Origin: Giardia intestinalis
Taxonomy: Eukaryota
Strand: one strand, 5' to 3'
DNA: 64,000 nucleotides
Assembly: GCA_000002435.2 (NCBI GenBank)
Contig: CM018793.1
Notes under the pieces: generated by a model
What the model was told of the DNA's origin: nothing
Seen by the model: only the letters and a program-made list of their open reading frames with translations
The model's database searches: none
Part shown: in pieces, positions 673-17,901 of the stretch
Numbering within the stretch: the stretch's first letter is position 1
How the letters are laid out: each line of letters opens with the position of its first letter
Program-made: the position numbers and the translations under genes

Positions 673-2028
673 GTGACGTGTACGCGGTGCTCGGCGAGGC
701 ACCTCGGGGTGGATGGGAAGTCCTGCAGTGAGAGCTGCAGTGGAGACACTCAAGGAGTGTGCACAAAGGTAGCAGAGGGGAGCGAGTCAACTGAAGTGTC
801 GTGCCGGTGCGTCTGCAGGATGGGCCTCTACAACAGCTCCGGAACCTGCACACCATGTACGGACTCGTGCGCTGTCTGCAAGGATGGCACACTAACCGGC
901 TGTCAGCAGTGCAGCCCCGGCAAGATCCTGGAGTCGTTAGTCGTTGCAGACGATAATGCAAAGTGTGTAGATGAGTGCGCTGTTGGTGACGACTGTGCAG
1001 AGTGCGGCATCACCATCGATGGCAGCAGGTACTGCACGCGCTGCAAGGACTCGAATATATACCCTCTCAACGGGGTGTGTATTCCGAACACACAAAAAGA
1101 CACGTACTGCACCAGCAAGGCAAATGGTGCTTGTACTACATGCTCAGGAGCGGCCTTCCTGATGAACGGGGGCTGCTACACAACGGAGCACTATCCAGGA
1201 AGCACTATCTGTGACAAACAGGCAGGCGGGAAGTGTGAGAAGACCAAGAAGGAGTACGGGATATCGGACGATGGAAAGCTGCTGGAGTGCGACCCGACAT
1301 GTCTGGGGTGCACCGCCCCTGGCCCCGGCCACTGCACCAGGTGCCCCTCTGACAAGCTCCTGAAGAGGGCCTCAGGTGCCGCCACCGGGAGCTGCATTGA
1401 CCCCAACGCCTGTGTAGACGGGTACTATGCAGACGGAGACGCGTGCCTGCCCTGCGCCACTCCGGGGTGCAAGGCCTGCGGGCATACCTCCTTCTGCACA
1501 GAGTGCGCGGGGGAGCTCTTCGTGAGCCTGGACGGGCGGTCGTGCCTGGGGGAGTGCAGCGGGGACAAGGTGGTGGGAGAGGTGCCCGGCGGCGTACGGA
1601 GGTGCTGGTGCGAGCGGGGCTTCCTGCCGGCGCTGGACAGATCCGAGTGTGTGCTCCCAACCGAGTGTCCCCCTGACATGCCGTTGTGTGCTGCCTGCGA
1701 TACGTCGGGTAAGTGTCTCTCGTGTGCCGCCTCGAATCATAACATCCAGACAGATCAGCGGACGTGTGCAGAGGGGTGCGGCACCAGGGCCTCATCGAAC
1801 CAGGGGGTGTGCATGTGCGAGCTCGACGCGGTTCTCACGAAGGACATCTGTGTCTCAGCCAAGGAGCTGGCCAAGAAGAGAACGGCGGCGATCGCAGGAG
1901 GGACAGTGGCCGGGGTCATTGTGATTGGGAGCTTGGTTGGCTTCCTATGCTGGTGGTTTCTCTACCGGGGCAAGCGAATTGGTGCCTCTTCGAGTACTGT
2001 GGGACTCGTTCAATCCAAGTCTATGTAA
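673..2028 (+). CDS. Variant-specific surface protein (VSP)-like cysteine-rich membrane protein. This is the longest intact frame of a probably disrupted gene. The ORF-track start at 673 is GTG, and the first in-frame ATG (820) is internal. The tail is degenerate.
   Basis: Many CXXC motifs and a GGCY box. The C-terminal TM segment VAGVIVIGSLVGFLCWWFLYRGKRIGASSSTVGLVQSKSM replaces the canonical ...CWWFICRGKA-stop. Confidence 0.5.
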   Translation: MTCTRCSARHLGVDGKSCSESCSGDTQGVCTKVAEGSESTEVSCRCVCRMGLYNSSGTCTPCTDSCAVCKDGTLTGCQQCSPGKILESLVVADDNAKCVDECAVGDDCAECGITIDGSRYCTRCKDSNIYPLNGVCIPNTQKDTYCTSKANGACTTCSGAAFLMNGGCYTTEHYPGSTICDKQAGGKCEKTKKEYGISDDGKLLECDPTCLGCTAPGPGHCTRCPSDKLLKRASGAATGSCIDPNACVDGYYADGDACLPCATPGCKACGHTSFCTECAGELFVSLDGRSCLGECSGDKVVGEVPGGVRRCWCERGFLPALDRSECVLPTECPPDMPLCAACDTSGKCLSCAASNHNIQTDQRTCAEGCGTRASSNQGVCMCELDAVLTKDICVSAKELAKKRTAAIAGGTVAGVIVIGSLVGFLCWWFLYRGKRIGASSSTVGLVQSKSM

Positions 2029-3339: not shown

Positions 3340-6300
3340 ATGACAACCACTAATCAGCTGCTTGATCGAATCCAGTCTCGTGCAGTTAAGAAAACACTCT
3401 TTTCCGAGATAAGTAAGAGCGAGCATCGTTTAACCACAGCTGCGTCTGCAGCTTACCAGCCGTCCTCATTTATGGACGCCAACGGATACAACTTTAATCC
3501 CTTCAAGAACACGAAAAGCTCTGATCCACCACCCAGTAACTGTTCACTCCCTAGTTTTTCTGCCACGGAATTAGAAGAGAAGGCTGTCAGATCAAAGACA
3601 AAACGCTTACTGAGTAAAGTTGAAGGCCATCTTCTCAAAGCCAAGGCGCGGAGCTTATCTAAGCCGTCTCCTGAAGAGCTCTCAAATACTCTTATGCAGA
3701 CTGTCTCTGATGTACCCATATCTTCTGCTTTGGTGTCAAACTTATGCGGCATTGACATCCCAGTTAGGATAGCAGAAAAGCGTCTTGCGGTCAGTTGTGA
3801 CGAAGGAATTGATCTCAAACCAGCTCTCTACGAACAAGTTAATCAGATACCTGGGAAGGAGGAACAGGGATCCACCACCAGACTCCAGAAGTATATGACT
3901 TACAAATACGATCCTCCCACAGAACTTAGCAGCGGTATTGACTTTATAGACAACAAAGTGCCGTTCTTAGTACATGAGCGACTAAGCACTGCTGCAAGTG
4001 GACGCTCTTGTAACAACATCGGTCATAGTAGCAAGCTTGATAAGCGATCGAGCATGTTAGGGATGGACTTAGCTACAGCAGGGCCAGAAGATCTCCGGGC
4101 ATACTTTTCTCGGTCGTCCAGTCCCAAGATATCTGTTACATCAACAAACACCAATGTTGCCACACCTCGAAAGAGTCCTGGAGATAGCAGCAGTGTAAGA
4201 TCTGCCGGGTCCAAACGGACGCCACTTCGACAAGAACGCTCTCATCTTCGTGACGCTCTTCTTGAGGCACCGAAGCAATTTCTCCCCGAGCAGACTCTTC
4301 AGAATTATGCAGACTATAAGACATCTGTTACTATTAACCAAATGCCCCATTTAGAGCAGGATGTTTTGGATCTCGAAACCACAGTCGAGCGGCGGAAGTT
4401 TGAAAGAGTTTTGCACTCTCCAGCAAAGCTCCAAGAAAAAGTGTTTCAGGTCAATCCGGAGCAAGTGATAGCTGCAGATTCTTGCAGATGTGATTGCCAC
4501 ACGTTGCCGCCGCACCAAATTGAGCTTCTACCCTATCTTCGCTGTCCCATGTGTCTGTGTAAAATACGGTCTGCTATGGAGAACGAACCAGAACCAGGGA
4601 CGACTTCTCTTTATCAGCATCTAAAGAAGGCTGCCAGTATGAAGAATAAGAATATGCCTAGGAATCTTTTGCACAACTCAAAGACTAACGTAGATTCCTT
4701 AGTTTATCGAACAACTGTGTTGCCCCCAGAAGAAGACTCGGCCAGCACTGCCGCACACGACAATTCTACCAAGAGCCTTCTAAATGAACTGAGAGAGGAA
4801 AAAGAAGAAACTGCTCAATTCATAGGAAGTCCGCTTGGTGCCATTAATGTCTCTCCACAAGCAATCTCGCCACGGCTAGCACAACGTTTGATCAACAGGG
4901 GACTTAATAAGGTGACCACACGTAATGAAAAGCTTCTTAGAGCCGCACTACAGCAAGCGATTCTTGCCGATAAGCTTTGGACCGACAGACTCTTGATGGA
5001 CATTTCCCCCGGTATAACCCCACAAGAGATTATAGACATTCTTCAGAAGCGTCGGTATGACCGGGCACCCTCTACTGTTGCAGTACCACTTATTCGAAAG
5101 ACCGCCACGTATCGGAGCAAGGTTGCCAACGATGATCTTGACCACGATGATCTTTTGCTTTCCTCTACTCTTCCACTGATCCAAGACTATGATTTGCAGA
5201 GCAATTCGTTGATAGATAAGGGGCTTGAAGAATCAGAACATGGCACCATCAGAGATGGATTTTATGGTATGGATGAACACACAAACAAGGAATTTGAAGA
5301 CTACACTCCCAATCCAACTGGAGCGCAGCCGCTGCGTCGCGTGAGGCTATCTGTTCCGGAATCAGTTAAGATACAATCACCAGCAGTACTACACATGCGA
5401 GATAGTATAGCTGATCCCACTGTACTTGATTCTCTTGGTGCACAGAAGCTTAAAGAGGCAAGAGCACATGAGGCTAATAAGGCGTTTATACCGAGGAGAC
5501 AAAAGCCTAATGTCTCAAATGCCGAAGCATTGGCGAAGAAAGTGCTGTACTCACGGTCTCGTGAGCAGCGTGCATCTAAGAGCAAAGAGATTATTGCCGA
5601 AATGGCCAGCGCTATCAAAGAAACATCATCCACAGCACGTTCTCGAGGGTCTCTAACAGGCTCATATTACTTACCACCCAGCTCAAGTGTCCGCATGCGT
5701 CCAGAGGAGTTGGCCGAATTCCAAGCCAATGTGACGAATGGATTTAAGGTCCAATCTACTAAGAAGGAGTATGTATTTAGATTTAGTCTTGCGTGTCTTT
5801 CTGTTAACGAGTATATATCCCTTCATTCTGTCAAGTATTTTAAATATAGATCGGTGTGTGGCTCACTAAACCTTTTTGTATATCTTAGCGATACAACACT
5901 ACAAGCTATCACAGAAGCATTTTACTTAGCAAAAAAGGTTGTAGATGTGGTGGTCGCAGGGGTTACCAACACACACGATCACTGCAACTCTCCAGGCCAG
6001 CCGAGCGTTTACAATTTGGCACAGAACAAAGACTTAGACTTAAATGTAGTGAACGGGGAATCTAAATCTGTAACCGATTCCATAGAGTTTACAGCCAAGA
6101 CTCGCTTGTCAAAGGATACATTATTATCTACATCAGGTCATCTCAGCTTTTCGTGCCCCTGCAACGGGCTTTACTATGTAGCACTACATATAGATAACAA
6201 GGACATCATGTATGTGGATGAAAGAGACTACAAGCAACTGATGCTAACGCAGCGGAAGGAAAATGCTCCTACAGCTGTTTTGCACAACCTAATAGAGAGC

Positions 6301-6831
6301 CAGCTGAAACTGTCAGAGGATAGTGGCACAGTGTCAAAGTCTATGCGTAAGCCGCAAGCAATTTTATCCAATAGGCTGTCCCATAGTGACCGTGAGGAAG
6401 AGTCTACAGATGCCATTCCTCCTGTTCCTCCAAATGAACGTGAGCCTTCGCCTCAGCTTATGGAGCACGATCTCGCTCTCAGTGATCAAGACACGTCAGA
6501 ATCTCGGCAGCACGCTGACGCTTCTAACCCACGGGCTGCAATTGCATCGGAATCGGTTTGCAGACGTACCCTAAGAACGGCCACGGACGATCACAAGCGC
6601 GACCTACCAGACGCTGACCAGTCCTTGCAGCATCATAGCGCTGAGGAGATGATGAATGAGACCCTTAGGTCAATTTACGCAGATAGCCGCCTTTCAGTAG
6701 ATATCCAGAGAACGATAGTCCCAGAGGCCTCTAACGGCTATATAGAAAAGGCTCTTCCGGTGAAATCCGTTGTCACGGCAATCCACCGGGCACAGAGCCG
6801 GCTCCGTAAGCTGACTGGCCAAGCGACATAG
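3340..6831 (+). CDS. hypothetical low-complexity Ser/Thr/charged-rich protein (1163 aa)
   Basis: ATG at 3340 preceded by an AT-rich element; long uninterrupted ORF. Confidence 0.6.
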   Translation: MTTTNQLLDRIQSRAVKKTLFSEISKSEHRLTTAASAAYQPSSFMDANGYNFNPFKNTKSSDPPPSNCSLPSFSATELEEKAVRSKTKRLLSKVEGHLLKAKARSLSKPSPEELSNTLMQTVSDVPISSALVSNLCGIDIPVRIAEKRLAVSCDEGIDLKPALYEQVNQIPGKEEQGSTTRLQKYMTYKYDPPTELSSGIDFIDNKVPFLVHERLSTAASGRSCNNIGHSSKLDKRSSMLGMDLATAGPEDLRAYFSRSSSPKISVTSTNTNVATPRKSPGDSSSVRSAGSKRTPLRQERSHLRDALLEAPKQFLPEQTLQNYADYKTSVTINQMPHLEQDVLDLETTVERRKFERVLHSPAKLQEKVFQVNPEQVIAADSCRCDCHTLPPHQIELLPYLRCPMCLCKIRSAMENEPEPGTTSLYQHLKKAASMKNKNMPRNLLHNSKTNVDSLVYRTTVLPPEEDSASTAAHDNSTKSLLNELREEKEETAQFIGSPLGAINVSPQAISPRLAQRLINRGLNKVTTRNEKLLRAALQQAILADKLWTDRLLMDISPGITPQEIIDILQKRRYDRAPSTVAVPLIRKTATYRSKVANDDLDHDDLLLSSTLPLIQDYDLQSNSLIDKGLEESEHGTIRDGFYGMDEHTNKEFEDYTPNPTGAQPLRRVRLSVPESVKIQSPAVLHMRDSIADPTVLDSLGAQKLKEARAHEANKAFIPRRQKPNVSNAEALAKKVLYSRSREQRASKSKEIIAEMASAIKETSSTARSRGSLTGSYYLPPSSSVRMRPEELAEFQANVTNGFKVQSTKKEYVFRFSLACLSVNEYISLHSVKYFKYRSVCGSLNLFVYLSDTTLQAITEAFYLAKKVVDVVVAGVTNTHDHCNSPGQPSVYNLAQNKDLDLNVVNGESKSVTDSIEFTAKTRLSKDTLLSTSGHLSFSCPCNGLYYVALHIDNKDIMYVDERDYKQLMLTQRKENAPTAVLHNLIESQLKLSEDSGTVSKSMRKPQAILSNRLSHSDREEESTDAIPPVPPNEREPSPQLMEHDLALSDQDTSESRQHADASNPRAAIASESVCRRTLRTATDDHKRDLPDADQSLQHHSAEEMMNETLRSIYADSRLSVDIQRTIVPEASNGYIEKALPVKSVVTAIHRAQSRLRKLTGQAT

Positions 6832-6876: not shown

Positions 6877-9800
6877 ATGGAGAACGAAAAACCGGGTCGC
6901 TGTAGGTTTTATCCGTTGACTAGTATTGTCTGGGATACCGACACGGGTATATCTGCCACTACACCTGTAGATGACACTACTTACCCGGAGCTTTTGTTTT
7001 CCTGCACAGGACGCCATCTAGTGATGGGTCCAGCCAATGGGCGTGATTTTTTGTCCGTCTCACTTGATAACCTCGCGCTGGAAGAAAATATTTCCATCAA
7101 AGCGCGCGGAGAGCGTGTGCTGAGCTTTGAAGGCAGAACAGAGGCAGGAATTACTGGAATTCTCGCCGTTCCAAACGGGCACGTCCTTTGCTGGGAGGAA
7201 GATCACGCTCTTCGAGAGTATCACTTAGCCTTTGAATCAGATAATAAGACTGTGCTACTGGCAGAACTTGCCACTGACGTACAGCAACTTTATGCTCTCC
7301 CTCACCCCATATTGCTGACGTTGGACCCACCTGGTGATGACACTGTCTGCAAACCCCAGGAGATGCTTTGCTTGGGCACGTACATCACAGATACGTGTCT
7401 TACAGCTATCATCTTGATCGACAATGCACAACTAGCGTTCTGCAAAATAGCAGCGTTAGATGATTATATTAAGCATGGCACAGCTCCAACACTAACGAGC
7501 TGTGTGACGTCATCTAGACGCTTGGTGTTTGGTGTCTTCCAGTCGCCTGAGACCTTGTTAATAGTAGAGGCTGACGATCTATCTACACCACAAATCTATG
7601 ACGTAAGTCAAGTATTTGATGACAACCTCCTTGACGAAGGCACTAGTTATGCTGATCCAAAAGAAGTCGTTTTATTAGGACTATTTGACGGAAAATTTGC
7701 GATATTAGCATCTTATACCAGCGATTATGATACTGTTGTTGCTATTTATAACATTTTTGATAAAAAGCTAGAGTTTAGTACAGTTGTTAAGCAATATGTT
7801 GTAGGCTGTACCGTGACCCCATACTGCCCTGGTCCTTACGATTTCTTCTTTAATATGCTATTTCTAAACATGAGTGACATTGTTTCCCTAGACTTCTTTT
7901 ATTTTTCGTACGCCGCACGCGACAATTACAATGCAATTCTGGAGAGGCTCGACTCCTATATGAGCAAAGAAGGTCACTCCACAAACCACTTTATTAATGT
8001 ACTGGTTAAATCATGTGAGGAGTTCTTCCAATCTCTCAAGGTTTCTGGTGATTACGCCCACACCTTTATTCCGTTATTGAGTGGCTCTGAACTGTTCGGG
8101 ATGGTTCCCAGTGCACGCTTCTCTAGGGTTCCATGCCTTCCGGAGGTAGATCAGAGTATCTTTTTTTCTCCACAGAACATAGTCCTTAGTACCCCGGTCA
8201 TTTCATCTGCCTCAGCAATCGCAGATAACCCATCCATACCAGGCATCAACCATAAGGAAGACCTTATTAAACAAAAGATTATTACGATGGGCGACACAAT
8301 TGACTGGAGTTATTCAACCAACGCTTGTGAAATTAAGGACAAGATAAAGGAATTGGTCACTAATAGTTGCACTGAGTATAACCTAAGTGTTACGCTTTCA
8401 GAGTTACCTCCATTTCATCTGGATTCGCCTAATTGTGGCTATGATAAAATCTATGCCAATCTGGTGTTTGCTCACCTTGGTGGAACCAATCAAATGACCG
8501 TCTATGTAGAGACAGTTTCTCGCGTGTACATCTCAGACTTTTTACCTCTCTACATACTACAATTTGACATTAGAAATTCCCAGGACGGAAGTAGCTGCAT
8601 CAGTTCCTTAAAAGTTCCTCAGAACGAAGAAACTACTGCTCTGGAAACTGCTACTCTCTTAGATGATACTCTCCTTACTGATTACCCCACTGACATGCTA
8701 GGCCTAGCTATCAGCGATGAACCTCCATTAATGGAGGTCAGTGAAAAGAAACCAAGCAATGCCCATGAGCAGCCACTAATCTGTGCGTCTATCGAGGCGC
8801 ACTCTTCTCCTAAGACAGGCTCAGCTGAGCCGGCACCTTTGCATCAAGGGGAATCAAAGTTCTCTCCTTCGGGATCATTAAAGAACGACTTAAATTATCT
8901 AGAGGCAGAGCTAGATACACAGATTAATAAAAAGATTGATGAAGCCAAAGAAAAGTATGCTCAAGCACTTAGTAGTCTAATAACTGCATATGCTGTTAAA
9001 GGGGAGCTCACCCTATTTCTGGATTCTATCTTACCGGACTACTTTGCTACAAGCCCATCATACTTGTCAGTCATGAAACAACTCAATCAACTTAGAGGAG
9101 TTCATATCATGTTAGAGAGTAGAACTGTCGATGGGTGTTCTCTTAGCACCAACTTCCTCAGAAACCTTTATGCGATGAAGTCGCAAAACGCGTTTCCTTC
9201 CCTCACACCTATGTTTGGAGCGGACTCGCTGACATTTTCTACGGCAATCATAAAGGATATTAACGGATTATTGTGTTATCGTCTGAGCTCTCCGTTGTTA
9301 CCTAGCCATGCTTCTAGCGAGGAGACTACAATAGGTATTCACCACTTTTGCGATGTCATGGACACTGTACTCTCTGCTTATGAGCACCAGCTCGATGTAT
9401 TTCAACTGGGATATAGACTGTATTGGAACATGGACGAGTCACTAAAACTGTTGAACTCCAAAGAGCCTTGCACTGAACACTTTAATAATGCTGCTAGCTC
9501 TTTACCCACATCAACGATACAGCCGGACAGCACGTTATTTGGCACCTCCTCAAGTGGGGTTCGCACTAGCAGGCCTAAAGCTAATACCATTGACTCTCTG
9601 GATCTCAGCAACTATGAAGATGCTTCCCTTGAAGAGCTCACTTTAACTCAGAATAGGGTTTCAAATTCGGGTTTTTCTTCTTTATTTAACAGTATGAACT
9701 ATAAGTCATCCTATACCGGGATAGCACAGTCATACTCTTTAGATAACACAAACCTGCCTCTACGGTTAACCCGGCCTTTGGAAACAACGTATGAAAACGG

Positions 9801-11463
9801 CAACCAAATGAAGATTGCAAATAAATTTAAAGCATCGAGCCTTGATGAGGTCTTTCGTAAACTCGGCTCTGGGATTACTATGCGGATGTCTGTGAAGCAG
9901 CAGAGTCTTCCGCACGTGCAAGATAATTACTCACTTCCCCCGTGTACCAGCTTTATTTTGTCGGAGTTTGTGGAAGACGTGGACAGGATGGAGAATGCCT
10001 CAGCTGGGTCGGCTTCCTCTAGAAAGAAGTTGCCCAGCAAAAGGAGCTCGGTGTTCCAGCACTTTCCTAGCATAAAGCCGACTTTCAAGACTTCAGATGG
10101 GAAACAATATTCTAACGTTCTAACGGTAGCATTTAAACCGAGTATATATGATAACAACAATACCCTTAGTACTGCTACGTCAACTATATGCTGTGAGTAT
10201 CCAGATGGTTCATATTTAAGAGGACTCGTACAGAGCTTGGCACCGCCTCCTTTCTTCGAAGAAGTCTCGCCGAAAATAACAAAGTCCACGCTCTGCATAA
10301 CGGATTTATATGCATCCCATTCATTTGAGACAATTGTCGAACAGTCAAAGCAACTGTCTGGAGGCAATGTAGTTACTCATAAAGATGCTATGCATCAGAG
10401 GATCGAAAGCACTAGTCAGACCCTTTTTGGCGCCGAGAACAGTCTATCAAAATCTCAGACCAGTTTCAGTTTTGGTGTACCCATTCAGAAACATACTAGC
10501 CAGCCGCAGATGATAAACGAATCCACTCAGCAGAAGAGCGCCTGGCCAGAAGCAAAGCCATTTACATTTGTAGCACCAATAAAGTCAGAAGTGCAGTCAG
10601 AAAAACCACTGTTCTCGTTTGGACCAAAACTAGAACCTAGTAACTCTGTCCAGGCAGAAAAGTCGCCCGATGATAAATTGGAACCAGCTCAGAATAGGGA
10701 CGCAGCAGATATGACTCTACCGGTCCCCCATCCAGTACCATTATCAGTATCAACGGACACAACACACGAAGAGCAGAAAACATCAATATCTGACTCTAAA
10801 CCTGCAAGCGAAGCTCGTGAAAATATCAAAGATGAATCTACCAGCGAGACAGCAAGTGGTAGCAAGGCACTGTCATCTGGGTTTAATTTTAATGTTCTAA
10901 AACCCATCATAGCACAGGATGCAGGAAATAAATCAAAGAGTTGCGAATCTAGCTTCCAGCCAACCGCGCCTACTAAGACAGCTGGCAGTACTTCTAGTTT
11001 GTCCGAAGTATTTAATAACTTCACCAAGACCACCAAGACTGAACCAAATGGCAATAATGTACTTCAACCTAGTCCTAGTCAGCCAGCTGCAAATTCATTT
11101 GCTTTTGGTGTACCAAAAGAACCGCCTGAGAGTAATGTGGTGAGTACAGTGACTACTTTTGGCACTGGATTTGGCACCAGCACTAATTTTGGCTTTGATA
11201 CAGTAACTATCAATCCAACTCCCAACGTCGGAGCCCAGATGACAACACCGGTTACTACTTTCCAAAATTCCTTTTCATTTCAGGGAGTATTTGGTCAAGG
11301 ATCACAACAGACAGCACCAACCGCTAAAATGTTTAATCCTCCTTCCTCTGGCACAACAACTAATTCAGTTTTTGGCAATGTGGGATTTCCAGGGACCTCT
11401 AATCCATTTGGATCTGGCACGGCACCAATAAGCTTTAACTTTGGCGGCGTGGCGAACAAATAG
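6877..11463 (+). CDS. FG-repeat nucleoporin-like protein (~1528 aa)
   Basis: The C-terminal ~350 aa carry FG-type repeats (FSFGVPIQ, FSFGPKLEP, FAFGVPKEPP, FGTGFGTSTNFGFDT, FSFQGVFGQG, NPFGSGTAPISFNFGG) in a Ser/Thr/Pro/Gln-rich context. The ORF-track start at 6859 is TTG; the first ATG is at 6877. Confidence 0.55.
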   Translation: MENEKPGRCRFYPLTSIVWDTDTGISATTPVDDTTYPELLFSCTGRHLVMGPANGRDFLSVSLDNLALEENISIKARGERVLSFEGRTEAGITGILAVPNGHVLCWEEDHALREYHLAFESDNKTVLLAELATDVQQLYALPHPILLTLDPPGDDTVCKPQEMLCLGTYITDTCLTAIILIDNAQLAFCKIAALDDYIKHGTAPTLTSCVTSSRRLVFGVFQSPETLLIVEADDLSTPQIYDVSQVFDDNLLDEGTSYADPKEVVLLGLFDGKFAILASYTSDYDTVVAIYNIFDKKLEFSTVVKQYVVGCTVTPYCPGPYDFFFNMLFLNMSDIVSLDFFYFSYAARDNYNAILERLDSYMSKEGHSTNHFINVLVKSCEEFFQSLKVSGDYAHTFIPLLSGSELFGMVPSARFSRVPCLPEVDQSIFFSPQNIVLSTPVISSASAIADNPSIPGINHKEDLIKQKIITMGDTIDWSYSTNACEIKDKIKELVTNSCTEYNLSVTLSELPPFHLDSPNCGYDKIYANLVFAHLGGTNQMTVYVETVSRVYISDFLPLYILQFDIRNSQDGSSCISSLKVPQNEETTALETATLLDDTLLTDYPTDMLGLAISDEPPLMEVSEKKPSNAHEQPLICASIEAHSSPKTGSAEPAPLHQGESKFSPSGSLKNDLNYLEAELDTQINKKIDEAKEKYAQALSSLITAYAVKGELTLFLDSILPDYFATSPSYLSVMKQLNQLRGVHIMLESRTVDGCSLSTNFLRNLYAMKSQNAFPSLTPMFGADSLTFSTAIIKDINGLLCYRLSSPLLPSHASSEETTIGIHHFCDVMDTVLSAYEHQLDVFQLGYRLYWNMDESLKLLNSKEPCTEHFNNAASSLPTSTIQPDSTLFGTSSSGVRTSRPKANTIDSLDLSNYEDASLEELTLTQNRVSNSGFSSLFNSMNYKSSYTGIAQSYSLDNTNLPLRLTRPLETTYENGNQMKIANKFKASSLDEVFRKLGSGITMRMSVKQQSLPHVQDNYSLPPCTSFILSEFVEDVDRMENASAGSASSRKKLPSKRSSVFQHFPSIKPTFKTSDGKQYSNVLTVAFKPSIYDNNNTLSTATSTICCEYPDGSYLRGLVQSLAPPPFFEEVSPKITKSTLCITDLYASHSFETIVEQSKQLSGGNVVTHKDAMHQRIESTSQTLFGAENSLSKSQTSFSFGVPIQKHTSQPQMINESTQQKSAWPEAKPFTFVAPIKSEVQSEKPLFSFGPKLEPSNSVQAEKSPDDKLEPAQNRDAADMTLPVPHPVPLSVSTDTTHEEQKTSISDSKPASEARENIKDESTSETASGSKALSSGFNFNVLKPIIAQDAGNKSKSCESSFQPTAPTKTAGSTSSLSEVFNNFTKTTKTEPNGNNVLQPSPSQPAANSFAFGVPKEPPESNVVSTVTTFGTGFGTSTNFGFDTVTINPTPNVGAQMTTPVTTFQNSFSFQGVFGQGSQQTAPTAKMFNPPSSGTTTNSVFGNVGFPGTSNPFGSGTAPISFNFGGVANK

Positions 11464-11464
11464 G

Positions 11465-13699
11465 CTACATACCTTCTATTTCCTTGGCATCCCAAAGCTT
11501 CCTTTGGACACACTTCTGTAAGCGCATCTCGGACCGTCCTGTTGACAGGGGCACACGGTCCTCCGGATACTTTCTGGCAGCCAGTCTTGTCTGAAGAAGT
11601 GGTTGCAGGATTGCCTTTGCAGATTCATAGAGGTTCAGTTTGCTATCATTGCTTTTAAGGTTGCTCCTTGTAATTGCCTTCTTCACATTTAATAGCCGAT
11701 GCACGACCTCCTTCTTGTAGGAAGCAGTATCCATGGAACTGAGGGCAGAATATGCGGCAAAGGTTTGCATCCTATCTTGAGGCATGATGATTCTCAGTAT
11801 TGAGGAGAAGTCATCCTCTTGCTTTGGAGGAGATGCGGTTCGCGTAGTCGTATCCTTATACTCTTTTATGTGCTGCTCATAATCCTCCATCGACTTTGCC
11901 TGTTCAAGCTTTTCCAAAAGCTCACTATTGTGAATATAAATAAGGATCTTTTTGTATTTGTTTATGTCATCCTTGGACAGAAAGTTGAACTCGTTTTTGG
12001 CATCATATCTGTTGTCCGGAATAACCACATCGAAGAGTGTTTCGTCGTCAGCCATTTCTATGCTCTTTGTCATCTTCTTTGTGTGTAGCTTAAAGCCTGT
12101 GCTAATGGGTTGCTTTGCAAAACGTTTTCGATCATGGATATGAATGCTATTGATCTGTAGAGAGCTCAGCTGAGGTGTCTCTGACTCTGTGAGAGAAATG
12201 GCAGGGGCAGATTCTGAAAAGGAGCTATCTGTAGGCATTCCTCGCATCACAGCACTGTTCATTATCGTCAAATCGCTATCATCAGAACCCCCCTCTGCGT
12301 CTTCACGAAGCTGTGCCACTCTGTTGGAGTGACGAGACTTAAGTAATTGGGAGTTGATCATGGGATTCTGAGAACGAGCTATGTCAGTAAGGCTCTTTAG
12401 ATTCCCACTACTTATGAGGTTTCGTGCCAGCGAGGCATTTTCTGCACTCTTTTCTGAAATTTCGGCGGTTAGTTCTTTGATAATACGATCACTGAGGCCA
12501 CTATTCGGAGTGGCCAACTGGTCTCTTAGCGCTTTCTCGTGACGCCGCAAACACCTCCATGCTCGCTTCTTCCCGTGGTCAAGCGCTGAACCGAGCGGTT
12601 CAGTAATAGGTGGGGCTTCTTCAAGATGCTTGCAAAGTGGTTGTTGAGTTGAGTTACTAACAGGCTGATGAGGTAGAGGTGCAATCCACAAGCTTTTCTT
12701 ACTGGCTGTAGCATGCCCCCGTGCGAGTGCAGTTGCCATTATTTCATTCTTTGCTGAATTGACCGTTGGTGCAGATACAGGGAAATCAGGCTTTTTGGCA
12801 AAGTTGCTAGCACCTTGATAGTTATAGAACTCCTTCCAATCTCTATCTATGGAGCAAACATTACCCCCTTGTCTGTTGCGAACAGATGGAGCGGAGCAGG
12901 CGGAGCTTATGATAGAAACTAATTGATTTTCTCGCACAGAGATGACGTCAGCAATACGGTCTTCTACAGATTTAACACGCTGCTCCGTTTTTTTGCGGCT
13001 ACTGTGTGCTTGGTCCTGAGGCTTCTGCGTAGATGTCTGTTTAGTGTTGTAACTGTCCATAATCAACTTTACATTAGAAACATATGGGTCCTCGTGATAG
13101 AACTTTGCTAGAATAATATCTGGATCTGTGCTCACCTCACCATTAACTTCTGCAGTGTCAATGATCTCTGCCACGCGATTCAGTGTGTGTTTAAGCCTCT
13201 CCTTCTTCTCTGCTGCCTCATCCTCCGATAAATAGGACACCTCATCGGCTGCGTCAGCCGTGGTAGTTGTCTGTTTGATCTCATCTGAAAGAAACTTCTC
13301 AATGTGTTGAGGGAGTGGCCGTGGCTTGTGGATAGCACGCATTGGAGAAGAAGAACCAGCCACTGTCAGATGGGCGCTGCTCCCTGTTTCATACGCGGCT
13401 CTGCCCTCATCGATGATAGACTTTGTTAAGGCATTTCGATGCATCACCTGCCGCCGTTTGATAGCATTTCTCATCTCCTTTAGATCTGCAGCAGTAGCTG
13501 TCTGTTGTGATAAAATAGATGGTCCTGGCTGCTTGCGTGTGAGAGACGCAGTGCTCCCACCAGTCATGCTTCCGTCTACACAGCGCTCGGAATCAGTCAC
13601 TAGTCGAGACAGCTCCTCATATATCCGTAGGTTTTTATCTATTCGTGTAGCTAAACTGTTGAAATAGGTGCTGCGTAAGGCATTCTCTGAAAGAGCCAT
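11465..13699 (-). CDS. hypothetical protein (744 aa)
   Basis: ATG-initiated (cat at 13697-13699). The stop lies 1 nt from the stop of the convergent 6877-11463 gene. Confidence 0.6.
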   Translation of the reverse strand: MALSENALRSTYFNSLATRIDKNLRIYEELSRLVTDSERCVDGSMTGGSTASLTRKQPGPSILSQQTATAADLKEMRNAIKRRQVMHRNALTKSIIDEGRAAYETGSSAHLTVAGSSSPMRAIHKPRPLPQHIEKFLSDEIKQTTTTADAADEVSYLSEDEAAEKKERLKHTLNRVAEIIDTAEVNGEVSTDPDIILAKFYHEDPYVSNVKLIMDSYNTKQTSTQKPQDQAHSSRKKTEQRVKSVEDRIADVISVRENQLVSIISSACSAPSVRNRQGGNVCSIDRDWKEFYNYQGASNFAKKPDFPVSAPTVNSAKNEIMATALARGHATASKKSLWIAPLPHQPVSNSTQQPLCKHLEEAPPITEPLGSALDHGKKRAWRCLRRHEKALRDQLATPNSGLSDRIIKELTAEISEKSAENASLARNLISSGNLKSLTDIARSQNPMINSQLLKSRHSNRVAQLREDAEGGSDDSDLTIMNSAVMRGMPTDSSFSESAPAISLTESETPQLSSLQINSIHIHDRKRFAKQPISTGFKLHTKKMTKSIEMADDETLFDVVIPDNRYDAKNEFNFLSKDDINKYKKILIYIHNSELLEKLEQAKSMEDYEQHIKEYKDTTTRTASPPKQEDDFSSILRIIMPQDRMQTFAAYSALSSMDTASYKKEVVHRLLNVKKAITRSNLKSNDSKLNLYESAKAILQPLLQTRLAARKYPEDRVPLSTGRSEMRLQKCVQRKLWDAKEIEGM

Positions 13700-13819: not shown

Positions 13820-14371
13820 TCATAACTTCACCTTTCGAGTTTCGCCCTCAGACCCTATTCCCAAGTCAACTCTCCGGACAGTACTTTCTCGCGGTCTGAC
13901 AAAGATGATACGTCTTGTGCTGTTTAGTATATCTGGGCGGATAAATGAGCAAATAGCCGTCGCCTTAGAGAGGTTACCAGATGCTCGGAGGAGACACGAT
14001 CCTAGAACGGCAAAATTACACTGCTCGCCATATATCTTCCGAAGAAGCTCTATTCTGACTTCAAACTCTGTCTCGTCGATTCCCAAGACAGCCCAGGGTG
14101 ACTGCCTGAGCGTTTCTGCCCACTTCTCGTCAGGCGTTGCCAGCAGCTTTTCGCCCTCTGTCAAGACGACGCCCACAACGTCTGAAGGCAATAGGAGATC
14201 CTTAGCTGATGAGAACCTGCTCAACATGCTAAACTGGGGGGAGATAGCTAGCGTGTACATCTGCTGAAACTCCCGCTCAATTTGACAAATGTAGTTCTTG
14301 ATGGTTACCTGTGGGTCCGTAACAATAGATACAAAACGAAAGATTCCCAAGACATCGACTACCAGTTTCAT
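13820..14371 (-). CDS. hypothetical protein (183 aa)
   Basis: ATG-initiated ORF, divergent from the helicase gene at 14487. Confidence 0.35.
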   Translation of the reverse strand: MKLVVDVLGIFRFVSIVTDPQVTIKNYICQIEREFQQMYTLAISPQFSMLSRFSSAKDLLLPSDVVGVVLTEGEKLLATPDEKWAETLRQSPWAVLGIDETEFEVRIELLRKIYGEQCNFAVLGSCLLRASGNLSKATAICSFIRPDILNSTRRIIFVRPRESTVRRVDLGIGSEGETRKVKL

Positions 14372-14486
14372 TAGCGCCTATTCTCTGTGCCTCGTGCTTC
14401 AATCCCTGAACAAAAAAGTTTTATCCCTTATGGCGTGCGCTACTTTTGCATTTTTTTGCCATTTCAATAAAGAGTTTTTTAAAAGC

Positions 14487-15851
14487 ATGGCACCAAAGGC
14501 AGACAAGGAAAGCGGAAAGAATGCAGCCGGCGTTTCTTCTAAAGAGTCAGTGCCTCAGAAGTTGGTCAGTAAGGACGATACTGGCGACGAGTTGGCGCTG
14601 CTGGCGGATACAGGAGCTGAAGTGGCGTCTGGAGCGCTTAGACAAGCACGAGCAGGCTCGCCGCGATCTGGTGCCTTGCTCACACGTTTCTCAGATTTTA
14701 ATCTCAGGGAAGAGGTCTTGCAGGCCATCATAAGCAACGGATTCGAGAGCCCTTCAGATGTACAATCAATGGCAATACCCCCTGCTTTGGAGCACAAAGA
14801 TGTGATATGTCAAGCAAAGAGTGGTAAGGGCAAGACAGCCGTTTTTGTACTATCCCTGCTACACATGATAGATCCTCAAGCGGCCCCGCACAAAGTCCAG
14901 GCCCTCGTTCTATGCAACACACATGAGCTTGCAATGCAGATATACAAAGAGTTCACTCGCTTTGCAATCAACCTCCCAGATATTAAAGATAAAATACTTT
15001 GTGCTATTGGAGGTGTTACGGTGAGCCTACACGTCAGGGCTCTAAAGTCTAAGGATGTCTCCATAGCGGTTGGAACCATTGGCCGCGTGAGCGACTTAGT
15101 GGAGAGAGGAGCATTAGACCTCAGCTTCATTAAATATCTGGTGTTAGATGAGTTCGATGCGCTGTTCAAAGAAGAAGATAACTTCAAGAAGATTGCCGGA
15201 TTGATCTCTAAAATGCCCGCCACACACCAAACATTGCTCTTCACTGCTACCTTCACCGAGCACTCTGAGAAATTCGCCCGCTCCATCCTCAGGGATGGGT
15301 ACGTGGCAATCCTGGTTGACGATAAGCAGTTAGTTCTTACAGGGTTGATGCAGTACTACTTCAACGCCCCTGAGGAGAAGAAGCTTCATATTCTTCTTGA
15401 TTGTCTAAGGCTCTTGCCGTTTTCGCAAGCAGTTATCTTTGCAAGGGACATCTCGCGTGTCACAGCTCTAAATGAGTTCCTCAAGGAAGAAGGCCACGAG
15501 TGTGTGTGCTTCTTCGGAAAAATGCACCACAAGAAGCGAGAGGAGGTCTTCCAGGGGTTCAAAGATAAGAAGGCGCGGATCCTTGTCTCGACCGACATCT
15601 TCCAGCGTGGTGTTGACTTCGCCAATGTGAACCTGGTCATCCACTATGATATGCCGGACTCATCCGACGCATATCTTCACAGATCAGGGAGAGCCGGGCG
15701 TTTTGAAACCGCGGGGATGGTCTTGTTGTTTGTCGGGACTGCCGAAGAGTCGGAAATGTTGTCACAGATTCAAGGCCGTTTCGCCACCTCCATCCCTCAG
15801 GTGAAGTCCCCAGAGGAAATTGATGTCAAGGCGGCCTTCACTGGGAAGTAA
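14487..15851 (+). CDS. UAP56: DExD-box RNA helicase, UAP56/Sub2 (DDX39)-like
   Basis: Q-motif/motif I region FSDFNLREEVLQAIISNGFESPSDVQSMAIPPALEHKDVICQAKSGKGKTAVFVL closely matches UAP56. Motif II is DEFD (UAP56 has DECD), motif III is TAT, motif VI is HRSGRAGRF. Start taken at ATG 14487 (aaaagcATGg); the ORF-track start at 14298 is TTG. Confidence 0.8.
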   Translation: MAPKADKESGKNAAGVSSKESVPQKLVSKDDTGDELALLADTGAEVASGALRQARAGSPRSGALLTRFSDFNLREEVLQAIISNGFESPSDVQSMAIPPALEHKDVICQAKSGKGKTAVFVLSLLHMIDPQAAPHKVQALVLCNTHELAMQIYKEFTRFAINLPDIKDKILCAIGGVTVSLHVRALKSKDVSIAVGTIGRVSDLVERGALDLSFIKYLVLDEFDALFKEEDNFKKIAGLISKMPATHQTLLFTATFTEHSEKFARSILRDGYVAILVDDKQLVLTGLMQYYFNAPEEKKLHILLDCLRLLPFSQAVIFARDISRVTALNEFLKEEGHECVCFFGKMHHKKREEVFQGFKDKKARILVSTDIFQRGVDFANVNLVIHYDMPDSSDAYLHRSGRAGRFETAGMVLLFVGTAEESEMLSQIQGRFATSIPQVKSPEEIDVKAAFTGK

Positions 15852-15897
15852 AAAGACTCTCACTTTAATCGTTTTGTTTGATGTTGAAAAAAATTCC

Positions 15898-17901
15898 ATG
15901 GCTGACAAGACTGATAAGCCAAGAACGTACGTTCCGCCATCCCAGCGCAGTAGGATGCAGTCAGATAGCTTCTCCAGCGTATCGGATCTCAACTCGAGTC
16001 CCGGCCTCAAGTTATCTATTAGCACTCCTAGCATATCAACGGAGGTGATGAATCCCAATGCCCCCTTTGTGAGTGTCAGTGGCCAGACAAAGGTAAAGCA
16101 AGAATATCAGGGGCAAGAAAACGGGTATGAAGACGGTACTCGCTCCGTTACCCTAGGTGCTCGATCTTTTGATGTCCTTCTCAACCCGTCGACCTCCGGC
16201 TCCAATCTTACTGTTAGGCATATAAAATCCCAACAAAGGTTGTCAGATAAGCTCGACATGCTAATTCCACCTCCAGAGATAATTCTCTTCAAGCGCAGCG
16301 CGGAAAACAAGATGATAATCGACTATAACTCCATGGAGCCAGCCAATATAAAGATCGAGTATCCACAACTGGAAGGGAAGAATAAGGGGGTAAATAAAGG
16401 CAACTTTAGAGACCTGGACTTCAAAGACTTCTCTTCGGAGACCCTTCAGAAGCTTGGCTTTCCTCAAGACTTGATCAGGAACGTTGGAAAGCTCCGCTAT
16501 ACACAGCCGACGCCCATCCAAGAAAATGCGATCCCCCTTGTGCTGTCTTCTATGGACCTTTTAGCAACGTCCCAGACAGGCTCTGGAAAAACGTTTTCCT
16601 TCTTATCTCCCATCATTGCACAGCTCATTAGTAGTCGTGCAAAGGATGCTATCTCGGACGATGATAAGAATATGGAACAATCCATGTCTTTTCCTTTGGC
16701 TGTTATCCTGTCCCCAACTAGGGAGCTCACCCAACAGATTGCATTCATGTGCTACCAGCTCACCTTCAAGACCAACCTTATTGTGAGGCTTGTTTATGGG
16801 GGTGAGGGGGCTAGGGAGCAGAGAGGCCTATTAAAGAAGGGCTGCGACATTGTGATAGCAACACCTGGTCGCCTCAAAGATTTCCTCGAGAGGAGGTGTC
16901 TTAGCTTAAAATATGTTCGTGTCATGGTGCTAGACGAGGCAGATAAAATGCTCGATATGGGATTCGAACCTCAAATCCGCGATCTTGTATACAAGTTTGA
17001 TATGCCTGGTAATGGACCTAACGGCAATCGGCAAACCCTTATGTTTAGCGCTACCTTTGGGACCGGGGTTCAGGCCATGGCCAAGCGATATCTCCACAAT
17101 GAAGCCCGCATACACGTTGGGCAAATAGGTAGCACAACTACGATGATAAAGCAGCAATTTGAATACTTTGCCGAAACAGCTATAAAGTCAGTGGACAAAC
17201 GCATTGATAAACTAATACATATCTTGAAGAGCCCCGGTTCTATCCCTACGGCCTCATTTCTTACTCTGATATTTGTAGAAACAAAGAAGGATATCGGGTA
17301 TATCATAACAAAGCTCCTCAATGCTGGCCTGAGGGTGTGCGAGATGCATGGGGATCTTGAGCAGCGCGAGAGGCAGAACAATCTCAAGAGCTTCAAGGAC
17401 GGAAAGACTCCCGTTCTCGTTGCTACTGACGTAGCCCAGCGTGGCATCGACATAGGAGCAATCCGACACGTCATTAATTTCGATTTTCCAAAAGATATAG
17501 ATACATATATACATCGCATTGGTAGAACGGGACGCGCTGGGGCAGAGGGGCTTGCTACATCTTTTATTCTTCTCGACACACCCCACTACATATTGAGGGA
17601 CCTGAAGAATATCCTTCTGCAATCCAAGCAACCGTTGCCAAAGTTCCTTCAGGACAGCATGCCAAGCAAGTACGGGCAGGTGAGTGGTAGGGTGAGATCC
17701 AGGGAATATGAGTCTGTGAAAAAAGGTGCACGGATTGACTCTGATGAAGATTTGTCCGACTCAAGTGATTGTGCTGAACAGCTCCACTCGCGGTCTAGTC
17801 GTCATACAGGAGCCTCCGAAGCTGTGACTCCGGCTAAAACCCCAGCCAAACCGTCAGCCTCTATAAACGACACGAAAGAACCCGCTGAACGTTGGGATTA
17901 A
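15898..17901 (+). CDS. DED1: DEAD-box ATP-dependent RNA helicase, DDX3/Ded1 family
   Basis: Motifs YTQPTPIQENAIP, SQTGSGKTFSFLSPI, PTRELTQQI, DEADKMLDMGFEPQIRDLV, TLMFSATF and HRIGRTGRAG. ATG at 15898 preceded by gaaaaaaattcc. Confidence 0.8.
   Translation: MADKTDKPRTYVPPSQRSRMQSDSFSSVSDLNSSPGLKLSISTPSISTEVMNPNAPFVSVSGQTKVKQEYQGQENGYEDGTRSVTLGARSFDVLLNPSTSGSNLTVRHIKSQQRLSDKLDMLIPPPEIILFKRSAENKMIIDYNSMEPANIKIEYPQLEGKNKGVNKGNFRDLDFKDFSSETLQKLGFPQDLIRNVGKLRYTQPTPIQENAIPLVLSSMDLLATSQTGSGKTFSFLSPIIAQLISSRAKDAISDDDKNMEQSMSFPLAVILSPTRELTQQIAFMCYQLTFKTNLIVRLVYGGEGAREQRGLLKKGCDIVIATPGRLKDFLERRCLSLKYVRVMVLDEADKMLDMGFEPQIRDLVYKFDMPGNGPNGNRQTLMFSATFGTGVQAMAKRYLHNEARIHVGQIGSTTTMIKQQFEYFAETAIKSVDKRIDKLIHILKSPGSIPTASFLTLIFVETKKDIGYIITKLLNAGLRVCEMHGDLEQRERQNNLKSFKDGKTPVLVATDVAQRGIDIGAIRHVINFDFPKDIDTYIHRIGRTGRAGAEGLATSFILLDTPHYILRDLKNILLQSKQPLPKFLQDSMPSKYGQVSGRVRSREYESVKKGARIDSDEDLSDSSDCAEQLHSRSSRHTGASEAVTPAKTPAKPSASINDTKEPAERWD

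Follow-up and report, generated by a model that had tools for sequence, protein, structure and literature searches.

Does the 64,000-nucleotide stretch of contig CM018793.1 from Giardia intestinalis (assembly GCA_000002435.2), which was analyzed here at its full length and is referred to below as the window, encode a component of the nuclear pore? The question is raised by the gene GL50803_0015109, the product of which ends in a long tail studded with phenylalanine-glycine (FG) dipeptides, and it is posed in an organism that is deeply divergent and binucleate and whose nuclear pore components have been listed almost wholly on the strength of weak homology. The answer that is developed below is that the protein is probably an FG nucleoporin of the Giardia nuclear pore complex (NPC), either lineage-specific or hyper-divergent, as judged from the content, composition and conservation of its sequence.

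Gene model and FG content of the tail

GL50803_0015109 is a single intact, intronless open reading frame (ORF) that occupies positions 6877..11463 of the window on the forward strand, beginning with an ATG at 6877 and ending with a TAG stop codon at 11461-11463, and that encodes 1528 amino acids; the coordinates (6877-11463) that an earlier note on this DNA had proposed were exact. An A/T-rich stretch (gtaaaatcttt) is found approximately 30 nucleotides 5' of the start codon. The product is identical to XP_037902150.1 / KAE8304732.1 from Giardia intestinalis WB (assemblage A), for which the only annotation is 'hypothetical protein'.

The same note had described the last 350 or so residues of the protein as a low-complexity field studded with FG motifs, and counting bears that description out. 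Of 15 FG dipeptides in the entire protein, 11 reside within residues 1150-1528, where shuffles that keep the composition of the shuffled segment yield 2.06 +/- 1.3, and where not one shuffle in 2000 reached 11. Because approximately two FG dipeptides are expected from composition alone and 11 are observed, the adjacency of F and G in the tail is non-random. Residues 1-1149, treated in the same manner, contain four FG dipeptides against an expectation of 2.4. The density of the tail is also unique in the window, in that the other 28 of its 29 ORFs of at least 200 amino acids display no more than three FG dipeptides per 350 residues.

The tail (residues 1181-1528) is composed of two parts, which differ in their spacers and in the placement of their motifs:

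10417..11076, forward strand: part A of the FG tail (residues 1181-1400), with charged spacers and widely spaced FxF/FxFG and single-F motifs; FG at 1184, FSFG at 1197-1200, FTF at 1229-1231, FSFG at 1246-1249 and FNF at 1336-1338
11077..11460, forward strand: part B of the FG tail (residues 1401-1528), uncharged and Gly/Thr/Asn/Pro-rich, terminating in ISFNFGGVANK; FAFG at 1408-1411, FGTGFG at 1428-1433, FGF at 1438-1440 and FSF at 1466-1468, followed distally by FG at 1472, 1499 and 1511 and by FNFGG at 1520-1524

Together, these motifs comprise four examples of FxFG (FSFG twice, FAFG and FNFG), a single GFG, a single FGF, and the FTF, FNF and FSF tripeptides. Part A is rich in S, T, P, K and E, with 21% of its residues charged (KRDE, with K and E abundant) and with Phe and Gly contents of 5.5% and 3.6%. 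Part B contains only 5% charged residues and carries a net charge of 0; its Gly content reaches 13.3%, and its Phe content of 12.5% corresponds to a 3.7-fold enrichment over the 3.3% background that is contributed by the other ORFs of the window. Within its 128 residues are found 16 Phe and eight FG dipeptides, as well as a 65% content of S, T, P, Q, N and G, and there is no L, Y, W, H, C or R at all. Part A contains 12% large side chains and 51% small residues, and part B 3% and 66%, against backgrounds of 29% and 38%. Of the 28 Phe residues of the tail, 11 are followed by G and 14 others by N, S, T, A or Q, which brings the total to 25.

The FG domains common to opisthokonts and trypanosomes have been reported to display an approximately threefold enrichment of Phe over the proteome, small flanking residues and a depletion of large residues, with a Gly content that is inversely related to charge and that gives rise to two groups of domains (DeGrasse et al. 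2009, PMC2742445). The tail of GL50803_0015109 agrees with that description in each of these respects, and its sub-regions split along the same line, into a Gly-poor, charged part and a Gly-rich, uncharged part. Its composition, together with an absence of predicted secondary structure, suggests that the tail would be natively unfolded.

Conservation of the tail and distribution of the family

The conservation counts given in this study refer to five G. intestinalis-group sequences that span 53-97% identity. Relative to the WB protein, the orthologues are 97% identical in an assemblage A2-like sequence, 79% in P15 (GLP15_3914), 59% in GS (assemblage B; GSB_154477) and 53% in a lineage recovered from sequencing run ERR3333378. 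The last of these orthologues, which is located at positions 36-4697 of contig L001 of a Logan assembly, is farther from WB than assemblage B and far closer than Giardia muris (approximately 25%), and points to an under-sampled Giardia lineage within a public sequencing run.

Across these five sequences, 23 of the 28 Phe residues of the tail are invariant (82%), against 82 of its 320 other residues (26%; odds ratio 13, Fisher p = 4e-9), and the corresponding values for Ser and Ala in the tail are 8% and 4%. A pattern of conserved Phe on rapidly drifting spacers has been reported in FG nucleoporins (Denning and Rexach 2007, as cited in PMC2742445), and, as far as these alignments reach, the conserved Phe residues on drifting spacers that are seen here are that same evolutionary signature. 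The two parts of the tail have evolved at different rates. Relative to WB, part A retains 63%, 49% and 40% identity in P15, GS and the Logan lineage, and it changes faster than any other region of the protein except a linker that is described below. Part B retains 84%, 70% and 64% in the same three lineages and matches the N-terminal domain in its degree of conservation, which hints at a sequence-specific partner.

An exhaustive profile search with residues 1-1180 against 1.84 billion representatives added only one new member to the family beyond G. intestinalis: a 1311-residue orthologue from G. muris (GMRT_13079; E = 9e-14). No relative was found by that search in Spironucleus, in Trepomonas, or in any other metamonad or eukaryote. 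The G. muris protein is collinear with that of WB, residues 142-561 of the latter aligning to 106-501 at 25% identity and residues 711-1473 to 606-1302 at 22%, and the two have in common a helical motif (TLFLDS.LP..FA) and a conserved island (TL.I[ST]DL). The tail of the G. muris orthologue has a weaker FG character (19 Phe and four FG dipeptides in 301 residues) and terminates in VFGGAKFTFGDK (vs ISFNFGGVANK in WB), such that the terminal FxFG..K ending is kept. Word-indexed searches recovered only four Giardia clusters when the full protein was used and three, a smaller yield than that of the exhaustive search, when a profile of residues 1-874 that included G. muris was used; the tail by itself returned no match at E <= 10, the query itself included, presumably as a consequence of bias filtering. 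Judged by sequence, the family does not extend beyond the genus Giardia.

Organization of the protein upstream of the tail

The remainder of the protein is divided into four regions, the first of which contains a single recognizable motif:

6877..8631, forward strand: N-terminal domain (residues 1-585), predicted to be beta-rich at approximately 70-345, with 47% invariant columns among the five orthologues and collinear 25% identity to G. muris
7129..7230, forward strand: single WD40-like blade motif (residues 85-118, EGRTEAGITGILAVPNGHVLCWEEDHALREYHLA)
8632..8880, forward strand: hypervariable linker (residues 586-668), acidic and Pro/Ser-rich
8881..9486, forward strand: predicted helical region (residues 669-870), conserved, also in G. 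muris (TLFLDS.LP..FA)
9487..10416, forward strand: Ser/Thr-rich stretch (residues 871-1180), with little predicted secondary structure and short conserved islands

The presence of conserved non-FG domains (residues 1-585 and 669-870) upstream of the tail is what would be expected for an anchor, which in FG nucleoporins is often a coiled coil, and the second of them is a candidate anchoring or oligomerization module. The linker that separates the two displays only 2% invariant columns in residues 601-650, and is 23-25% identical, with insertions and deletions, in the distant assemblages. Within the Ser/Thr-rich stretch, conserved islands are found at residues 908-915 (LDLSNYED), at 980-1009 (30 residues, IANKFKASSLDEVFRKLGSGITMRMSVKQQ) and at 1137-1170 (STLCITDLYASHSFETIVEQSKQLSGGNVVTHKD), along with a conserved basic island at 1047-1061 (SSRKKLPSKRSSVFQ; basic motif SSRKKLPSKRSS at 1047-1058), which may resemble a nuclear localization signal (NLS). 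The proposal in the earlier note that the N-terminal 1000 or so residues are structured thus holds for residues 1-585 and for approximately 669-865, which are conserved and predicted to be ordered, but not for residues 586-668 or 871-1180.

Models of the upstream region generated with AlphaFold2 from shallow alignments are of low confidence, with a mean predicted local distance difference test (pLDDT) value of 30 for residues 1-1180 and 37 for residues 1-585. In them, residues 72-343 contain approximately 20 beta-strands; helices follow at 348-400 and 481-495, and (by DSSP) long alpha-helices at 669-707, 711-749 and 814-860. When the model of residues 1-585 was compared with the PDB using Foldseek, nearly all of the matches were beta-propellers, among them a few nucleoporin chains; with template modeling (TM) scores of at most 0.16 and root-mean-square deviations of 13-19 Å, these matches carry little weight.

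The WD40-like motif at residues 85-118 resembles the repeats of bacterial NACHT/STAND proteins (LEGH..V.GAL.LPDGRILSWS.D.TLR.W) and represents the sole similarity of GL50803_0015109 outside of Giardia. It was scored at 19.7 bits over residues 92-113 by a repeat hidden Markov model (HMM) and at a probability of 87% by hhalign; the library E-values of 1.5e-9 that it also produced are exaggerated, since each target offers seven to nine tandem repeats to the one query motif. Neither the repeat HMM nor an hhalign self-comparison detected a second blade or internal repeat, and the motif was not detected in the G. muris orthologue. The WDR3-like protein encoded at 53770-56895 of the window, which served as a positive control, was recognized by Pfam at E ~1e-71, and GL50803_0015109 produced no Pfam WD40 match. 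Membership among the canonical WD40-repeat proteins is not supported, given that lack of a Pfam match and the presence of only one blade-like motif.

Nucleoporin propellers are typically non-canonical, and a propeller at the N-terminus of GL50803_0015109 would be of that kind. Of the beta-propeller or alpha-solenoid scaffold that the earlier note suggested, the propeller is made plausible by the predicted beta-rich N-terminus and the one blade motif, within the confidence limits of the models given above. No alpha-solenoid signal was seen.

Comparison with known nucleoporins

Searches at the level of HMMER, Pfam and PDB sequences detected no homology between GL50803_0015109 and Nup98, Nup214, Nup145, Nup159 or other nucleoporin (Nup) families. 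The likeness to known families that is described here is one of architecture and of repeat type. In metazoan and plant Nup214, a seven-bladed propeller is followed by a helical or coiled-coil segment and then by a C-terminal FG domain. GL50803_0015109, which is similarly large and in which a beta-rich N-terminus, a helical segment and a long disordered region would precede a C-terminal FG domain, comes closest to that order, with its first two modules being predicted ones. It differs from Nup214/Nup159 in its lack of detectable sequence homology, in a negative heptad test, and in propeller matches with Foldseek TM scores that do not exceed 0.16. The repeats of Nup159 are of the SAFG/PSFG flavor, whereas those of GL50803_0015109 are FxFG/FxF.

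The latter flavor is nearest to that of Nsp1, Nup1 and Nup153, and the FxFG/FxF cores of the tail (FSFG twice, FAFG, FNFG, FTF, FNF and FSF) are a point of likeness to Nsp1/Nup62, Nup1, Nup2 and Nup153. The charged, Lys/Glu-rich proximal spacers additionally resemble those of the 'extended' FG domains of the Nsp1 type, and the conserved basic sequence KKLPSKR may recall the importin-alpha-binding or NLS-like elements of basket Nups. However, the FG domain is C-terminal here and N-terminal in Nsp1/Nup62, there is no Nsp1_C domain, the zinc fingers of Nup153 are absent, and nothing in Nsp1/Nup62, Nup1, Nup2 or Nup153 corresponds to the large beta-rich domain at the N-terminus.

Three assignments can be set aside. 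The Nup98/Nup145N/Nup116 type, in which GLFG repeats are N-terminal and an autoproteolytic beta-sandwich domain is C-terminal, is ruled out by the absence of GLFG repeats, by the location of the FG domain at the opposite end of the protein and by the lack of a Pfam match, and a separate Giardia Nup98-96 homologue has already been described (PMC2742445). The Nsp1/Nup62 type, in which the Nsp1_C coiled-coil domain follows the FG repeats, is ruled out by the lack of an Nsp1_C match in a protein that ends in the FG domain itself, and a Sec31-like coat protein is ruled out by the prior assignment of Giardia Sec31 and by the absence of a Pro-rich region or an ACE1 signal.

An HMM-based screen for nucleoporins (Neumann et al. 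2010) yielded, according to a column-by-column reading of its Table 2, no Giardia candidate for Nup214, Nup88 or Gle1, and so the Giardia inventory still lacks peripheral FG Nups. The absence of Gle1 from the Giardia column of that table also renders a classical role as a Dbp5-docking propeller less expected.

A precedent for the present candidate is found in Plasmodium berghei, where a scan for FG dipeptides picked out five large proteins that are confined to the genus, are listed as conserved and of 'unknown function', and contain 14-31 FG dipeptides (Nup138, Nup205, Nup221, Nup313 and Nup637; PMC6062611). All four of those that could be tagged produced an NPC-like perinuclear signal, and their repeats are mostly irregular and of the [SN]xFG type (PMC6062611). 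GL50803_0015109 is likewise large and restricted to a genus, and its 15 FG dipeptides, mostly in S/N/T-x-FG and FxFG contexts, place it at the lower edge of that range; it is unrelated to the Plasmodium proteins in sequence, belongs to a different supergroup, and is known here from its sequence alone. In Trypanosoma brucei, every recognizable FG-repeat protein of the genome is present in the NPC proteome, and the clustering of FG repeats in a disordered domain is regarded as essentially specific to nucleoporins (PMC2742445). Because GL50803_0015109 displays no homology and a mixture of Nup214-like and Nsp1-like features, it is classified here as a candidate for the functional class of FG nucleoporins and not for any one Nup family.

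Weighing the nucleoporin assignment

The assignment of GL50803_0015109 as an FG nucleoporin is a well-founded prediction, and passes every test that is possible from sequence. The claim, as it was originally made in the earlier note, is strengthened by the FG enrichment, the composition of the tail, the conservation of its Phe residues, the conserved domains upstream, the hydrophilic N-terminus without a signal-peptide-like segment and the Plasmodium precedent, and is left without homology to any Nup family.

Several observations weigh against that assignment. The number of FG dipeptides (11 in the tail, 15 in total) is low by the standards of FG Nups, and the repeats are irregular and do not form a tandem array. 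The high conservation of part B is atypical for FG spacers, which drift rapidly, and could mean that the tail performs a specific binding function away from the pore. Pfam produced no family at E <= 1 for the whole protein or at E <= 10 for four sub-regions; searches of PDB sequences with profiles of residues 1-1180 and 1-585 and with the tail returned only chance matches (eL1, archaeal flagellin and SMI1); and the exhaustive search of 1.84 billion representatives returned no nucleoporin family, but only Giardia sequences and matches to the WD motif. The pLDDT values given above are so low that no fold can be assigned to residues 1-1180, including that of the presumptive anchor, and a simple heptad test for a coiled coil in residues 669-870 did not rise above shuffled sequences, for which reason residues 669-865 are termed 'predicted helical' rather than a coiled coil. 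The most hydrophobic 19-residue segment of the protein (residues 163-181, mean Kyte-Doolittle value of 1.78) exceeds the usual membrane-spanning threshold. Finally, GL50803_0015109 is absent from the main text and three supplementary files of a 2026 localization atlas of 608 Giardia proteins, seven of which were found to be specific to the nuclear envelope. The literature search also found no paper that mentions GL50803_15109 and no pore proteomics study specific to Giardia, and the gene is absent from the supplementary tables of Neumann et al. (2010).

Taken with these points, a fuller description of the protein, as a genuine FG nucleoporin specific to the genus Giardia (either a filament protein of the Nup214/Nup159 type that has diverged beyond recognition, or a lineage invention that combines a beta-rich anchor with an unusually conserved FG tip), has about an even prospect of being correct.

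Among alternative explanations, the one that survives best is that the protein is a Giardia-specific scaffold of some other assembly, such as a ribonucleoprotein (RNP) granule, the cytoskeleton or ventral disc, the flagellar base or a vesicle-coat accessory, in which the F/G/N/T-rich low-complexity tail would mediate interactions of the multivalent or condensate type. Giardia is rich in lineage-specific structural proteins, and approximately 40% of its proteome is uncharacterized (PMC13322205). The absence of Nup homology of any kind, the modest number and irregularity of the FG motifs, and a distal tail that is 64-84% identical, as would be the case for a specific binding module, are all compatible with such a role, as is the one NPF tripeptide at residues 1509-1511. 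That tripeptide is single, however, and the repeated motifs of the endocytic type (DPF, FxDxF) are not found; nor are the RGG or YG-type signatures of RNA granules, in a tail that contains two Arg and no Tyr. Moreover, the literature regards a disordered domain with conserved FG/FxFG motifs clustered along polar spacers as all but diagnostic of a nucleoporin (PMC2742445), and the FG criterion identified a pore-like localization in four cases out of four in Plasmodium (PMC6062611). A scaffold outside of the pore is for these reasons unlikely, although it retains an appreciable share of the probability.

A second alternative, that a Gly/Ser/Thr/Phe low-complexity tail gave rise to the FG enrichment incidentally, and that the tail is a neutral disordered extension in which Phe has no function, is improbable. 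Low-complexity tails are common, part A evolves rapidly (40-63% identity), and the tail of the G. muris protein contains only four FG dipeptides. Against this, the composition-preserving shuffles account for approximately two of the 11 FG dipeptides that are observed, Phe is invariant at 82% of its positions as opposed to 26% for the remaining tail (p = 4e-9), and the terminal FxFG..K ending has been kept in G. muris.

A secreted, membrane-bound or cyst-wall glycoprotein of the Ser/Thr-rich mucin-like type is most improbable of all: Ser and Thr do make up 25-27% of residues 871-1528, genes for variant-specific surface proteins (VSP) and cysteine-rich surface proteins do lie in the same region, and residues 163-181 are as hydrophobic as stated above, but the N-terminus is hydrophilic (mean Kyte-Doolittle value of -0.58 over the first 30 residues, with no signal-peptide-like segment within them), Cys-rich motifs and VSP or EGF Pfam matches are absent, unlike in the neighboring genes, and residues 163-181, which include an Asp and several Thr and are predicted as beta-strand inside the conserved domain in both models, are more likely, though not proven, to be a buried strand than a membrane segment.

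A possible arrangement at the nuclear pore

If GL50803_0015109 is indeed an FG nucleoporin, its organization suggests how it might be deployed. The conserved N-terminal domain (residues 1-585) and the helical region (approximately 669-865) would dock the protein on the pore scaffold or on a partner Nup, and residues 871-1180 would provide a long flexible segment bearing short conserved linear motifs. The C-terminal 348 residues would then form a natively unfolded, bipartite FG domain that reaches into the transport channel or its surroundings, and within that domain a charged, extended FxF/FxFG 'stalk' (1181-1400) may lead to a charge-poor, Gly/Thr/Asn-rich and FG-dense tip (1401-1528). The Phe residues of the tail would act as low-affinity sites for karyopherins of the importin-beta type and for other transport receptors, and would form part of the permeability barrier.

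Genomic neighborhood

The genes that surround GL50803_0015109, and other features of the window, are as follows:

820-2028 (forward), 39737-41362 (forward), 35002-37527 (reverse) and 32944-34722 (forward): VSP genes (Pfam VSP E = 2.5e-40 and 1e-133), and genes for VSP-like/furin-repeat and EGF-repeat cysteine-rich proteins
3340-6831, forward strand: gene upstream of GL50803_0015109, 1163 amino acids, Ser-rich, with zero FG dipeptides and without a Pfam domain
11465-13699, reverse strand: convergent downstream gene, 744 amino acids, without a Pfam domain
14301-15851 and 15823-17901, forward strand: adjoining DEAD-box helicase genes, the ORFs of which overlap by 29 nucleotides
27821-32449, forward strand: ORF of 1542 amino acids, without a Pfam domain
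53770-56895, reverse strand: WDR3/Utp12-like double beta-propeller protein (Pfam E ~1e-71)
59403-62945, reverse strand: DUF789-domain protein, 1180 amino acids

The stop codon of GL50803_0015109 (11461-11463) and that of the convergent 744-residue gene are separated by a single nucleotide, which fits the tight packing of genes in Giardia; because of that spacing, the 3' untranslated region and polyadenylation signal of each of the two genes would lie within the coding sequence of its partner. The convergent arrangement is kept in contig L001 of the divergent Giardia lineage, where a gene of 741 residues begins one nucleotide past the orthologue. The pair of DEAD-box genes is also found downstream of the orthologue in that contig, and local synteny is therefore conserved. 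The ORFs at 27821-32449 and 3340-6831 both represent 'dark' Giardia proteins that lie near or flank GL50803_0015109. In the composition profile of the window, the GC-rich blocks (0.60-0.63) correspond to the positions at which the VSP genes reside.

Significance for the Giardia nuclear pore

Because FG nucleoporins evolve too rapidly for homology detection, candidates that are chosen on the basis of composition offer a practical point of entry to the pore of a divergent organism, and that route has succeeded in both Plasmodium and the trypanosomes. If the assignment of GL50803_0015109 is correct, the protein would offer, as a bait, the first means of purifying the pore complex of Giardia by affinity, as well as a marker with which the pores of the two nuclei could be compared for equivalence and followed through mitosis. 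Such a result would overturn nothing and would be unsurprising in principle, in that it would extend a known class of proteins to a poorly sampled lineage; it would also contribute a further data point on the divergence of the peripheral, transport-receptor-binding part of the pore, in which the FG principle itself would have been kept.

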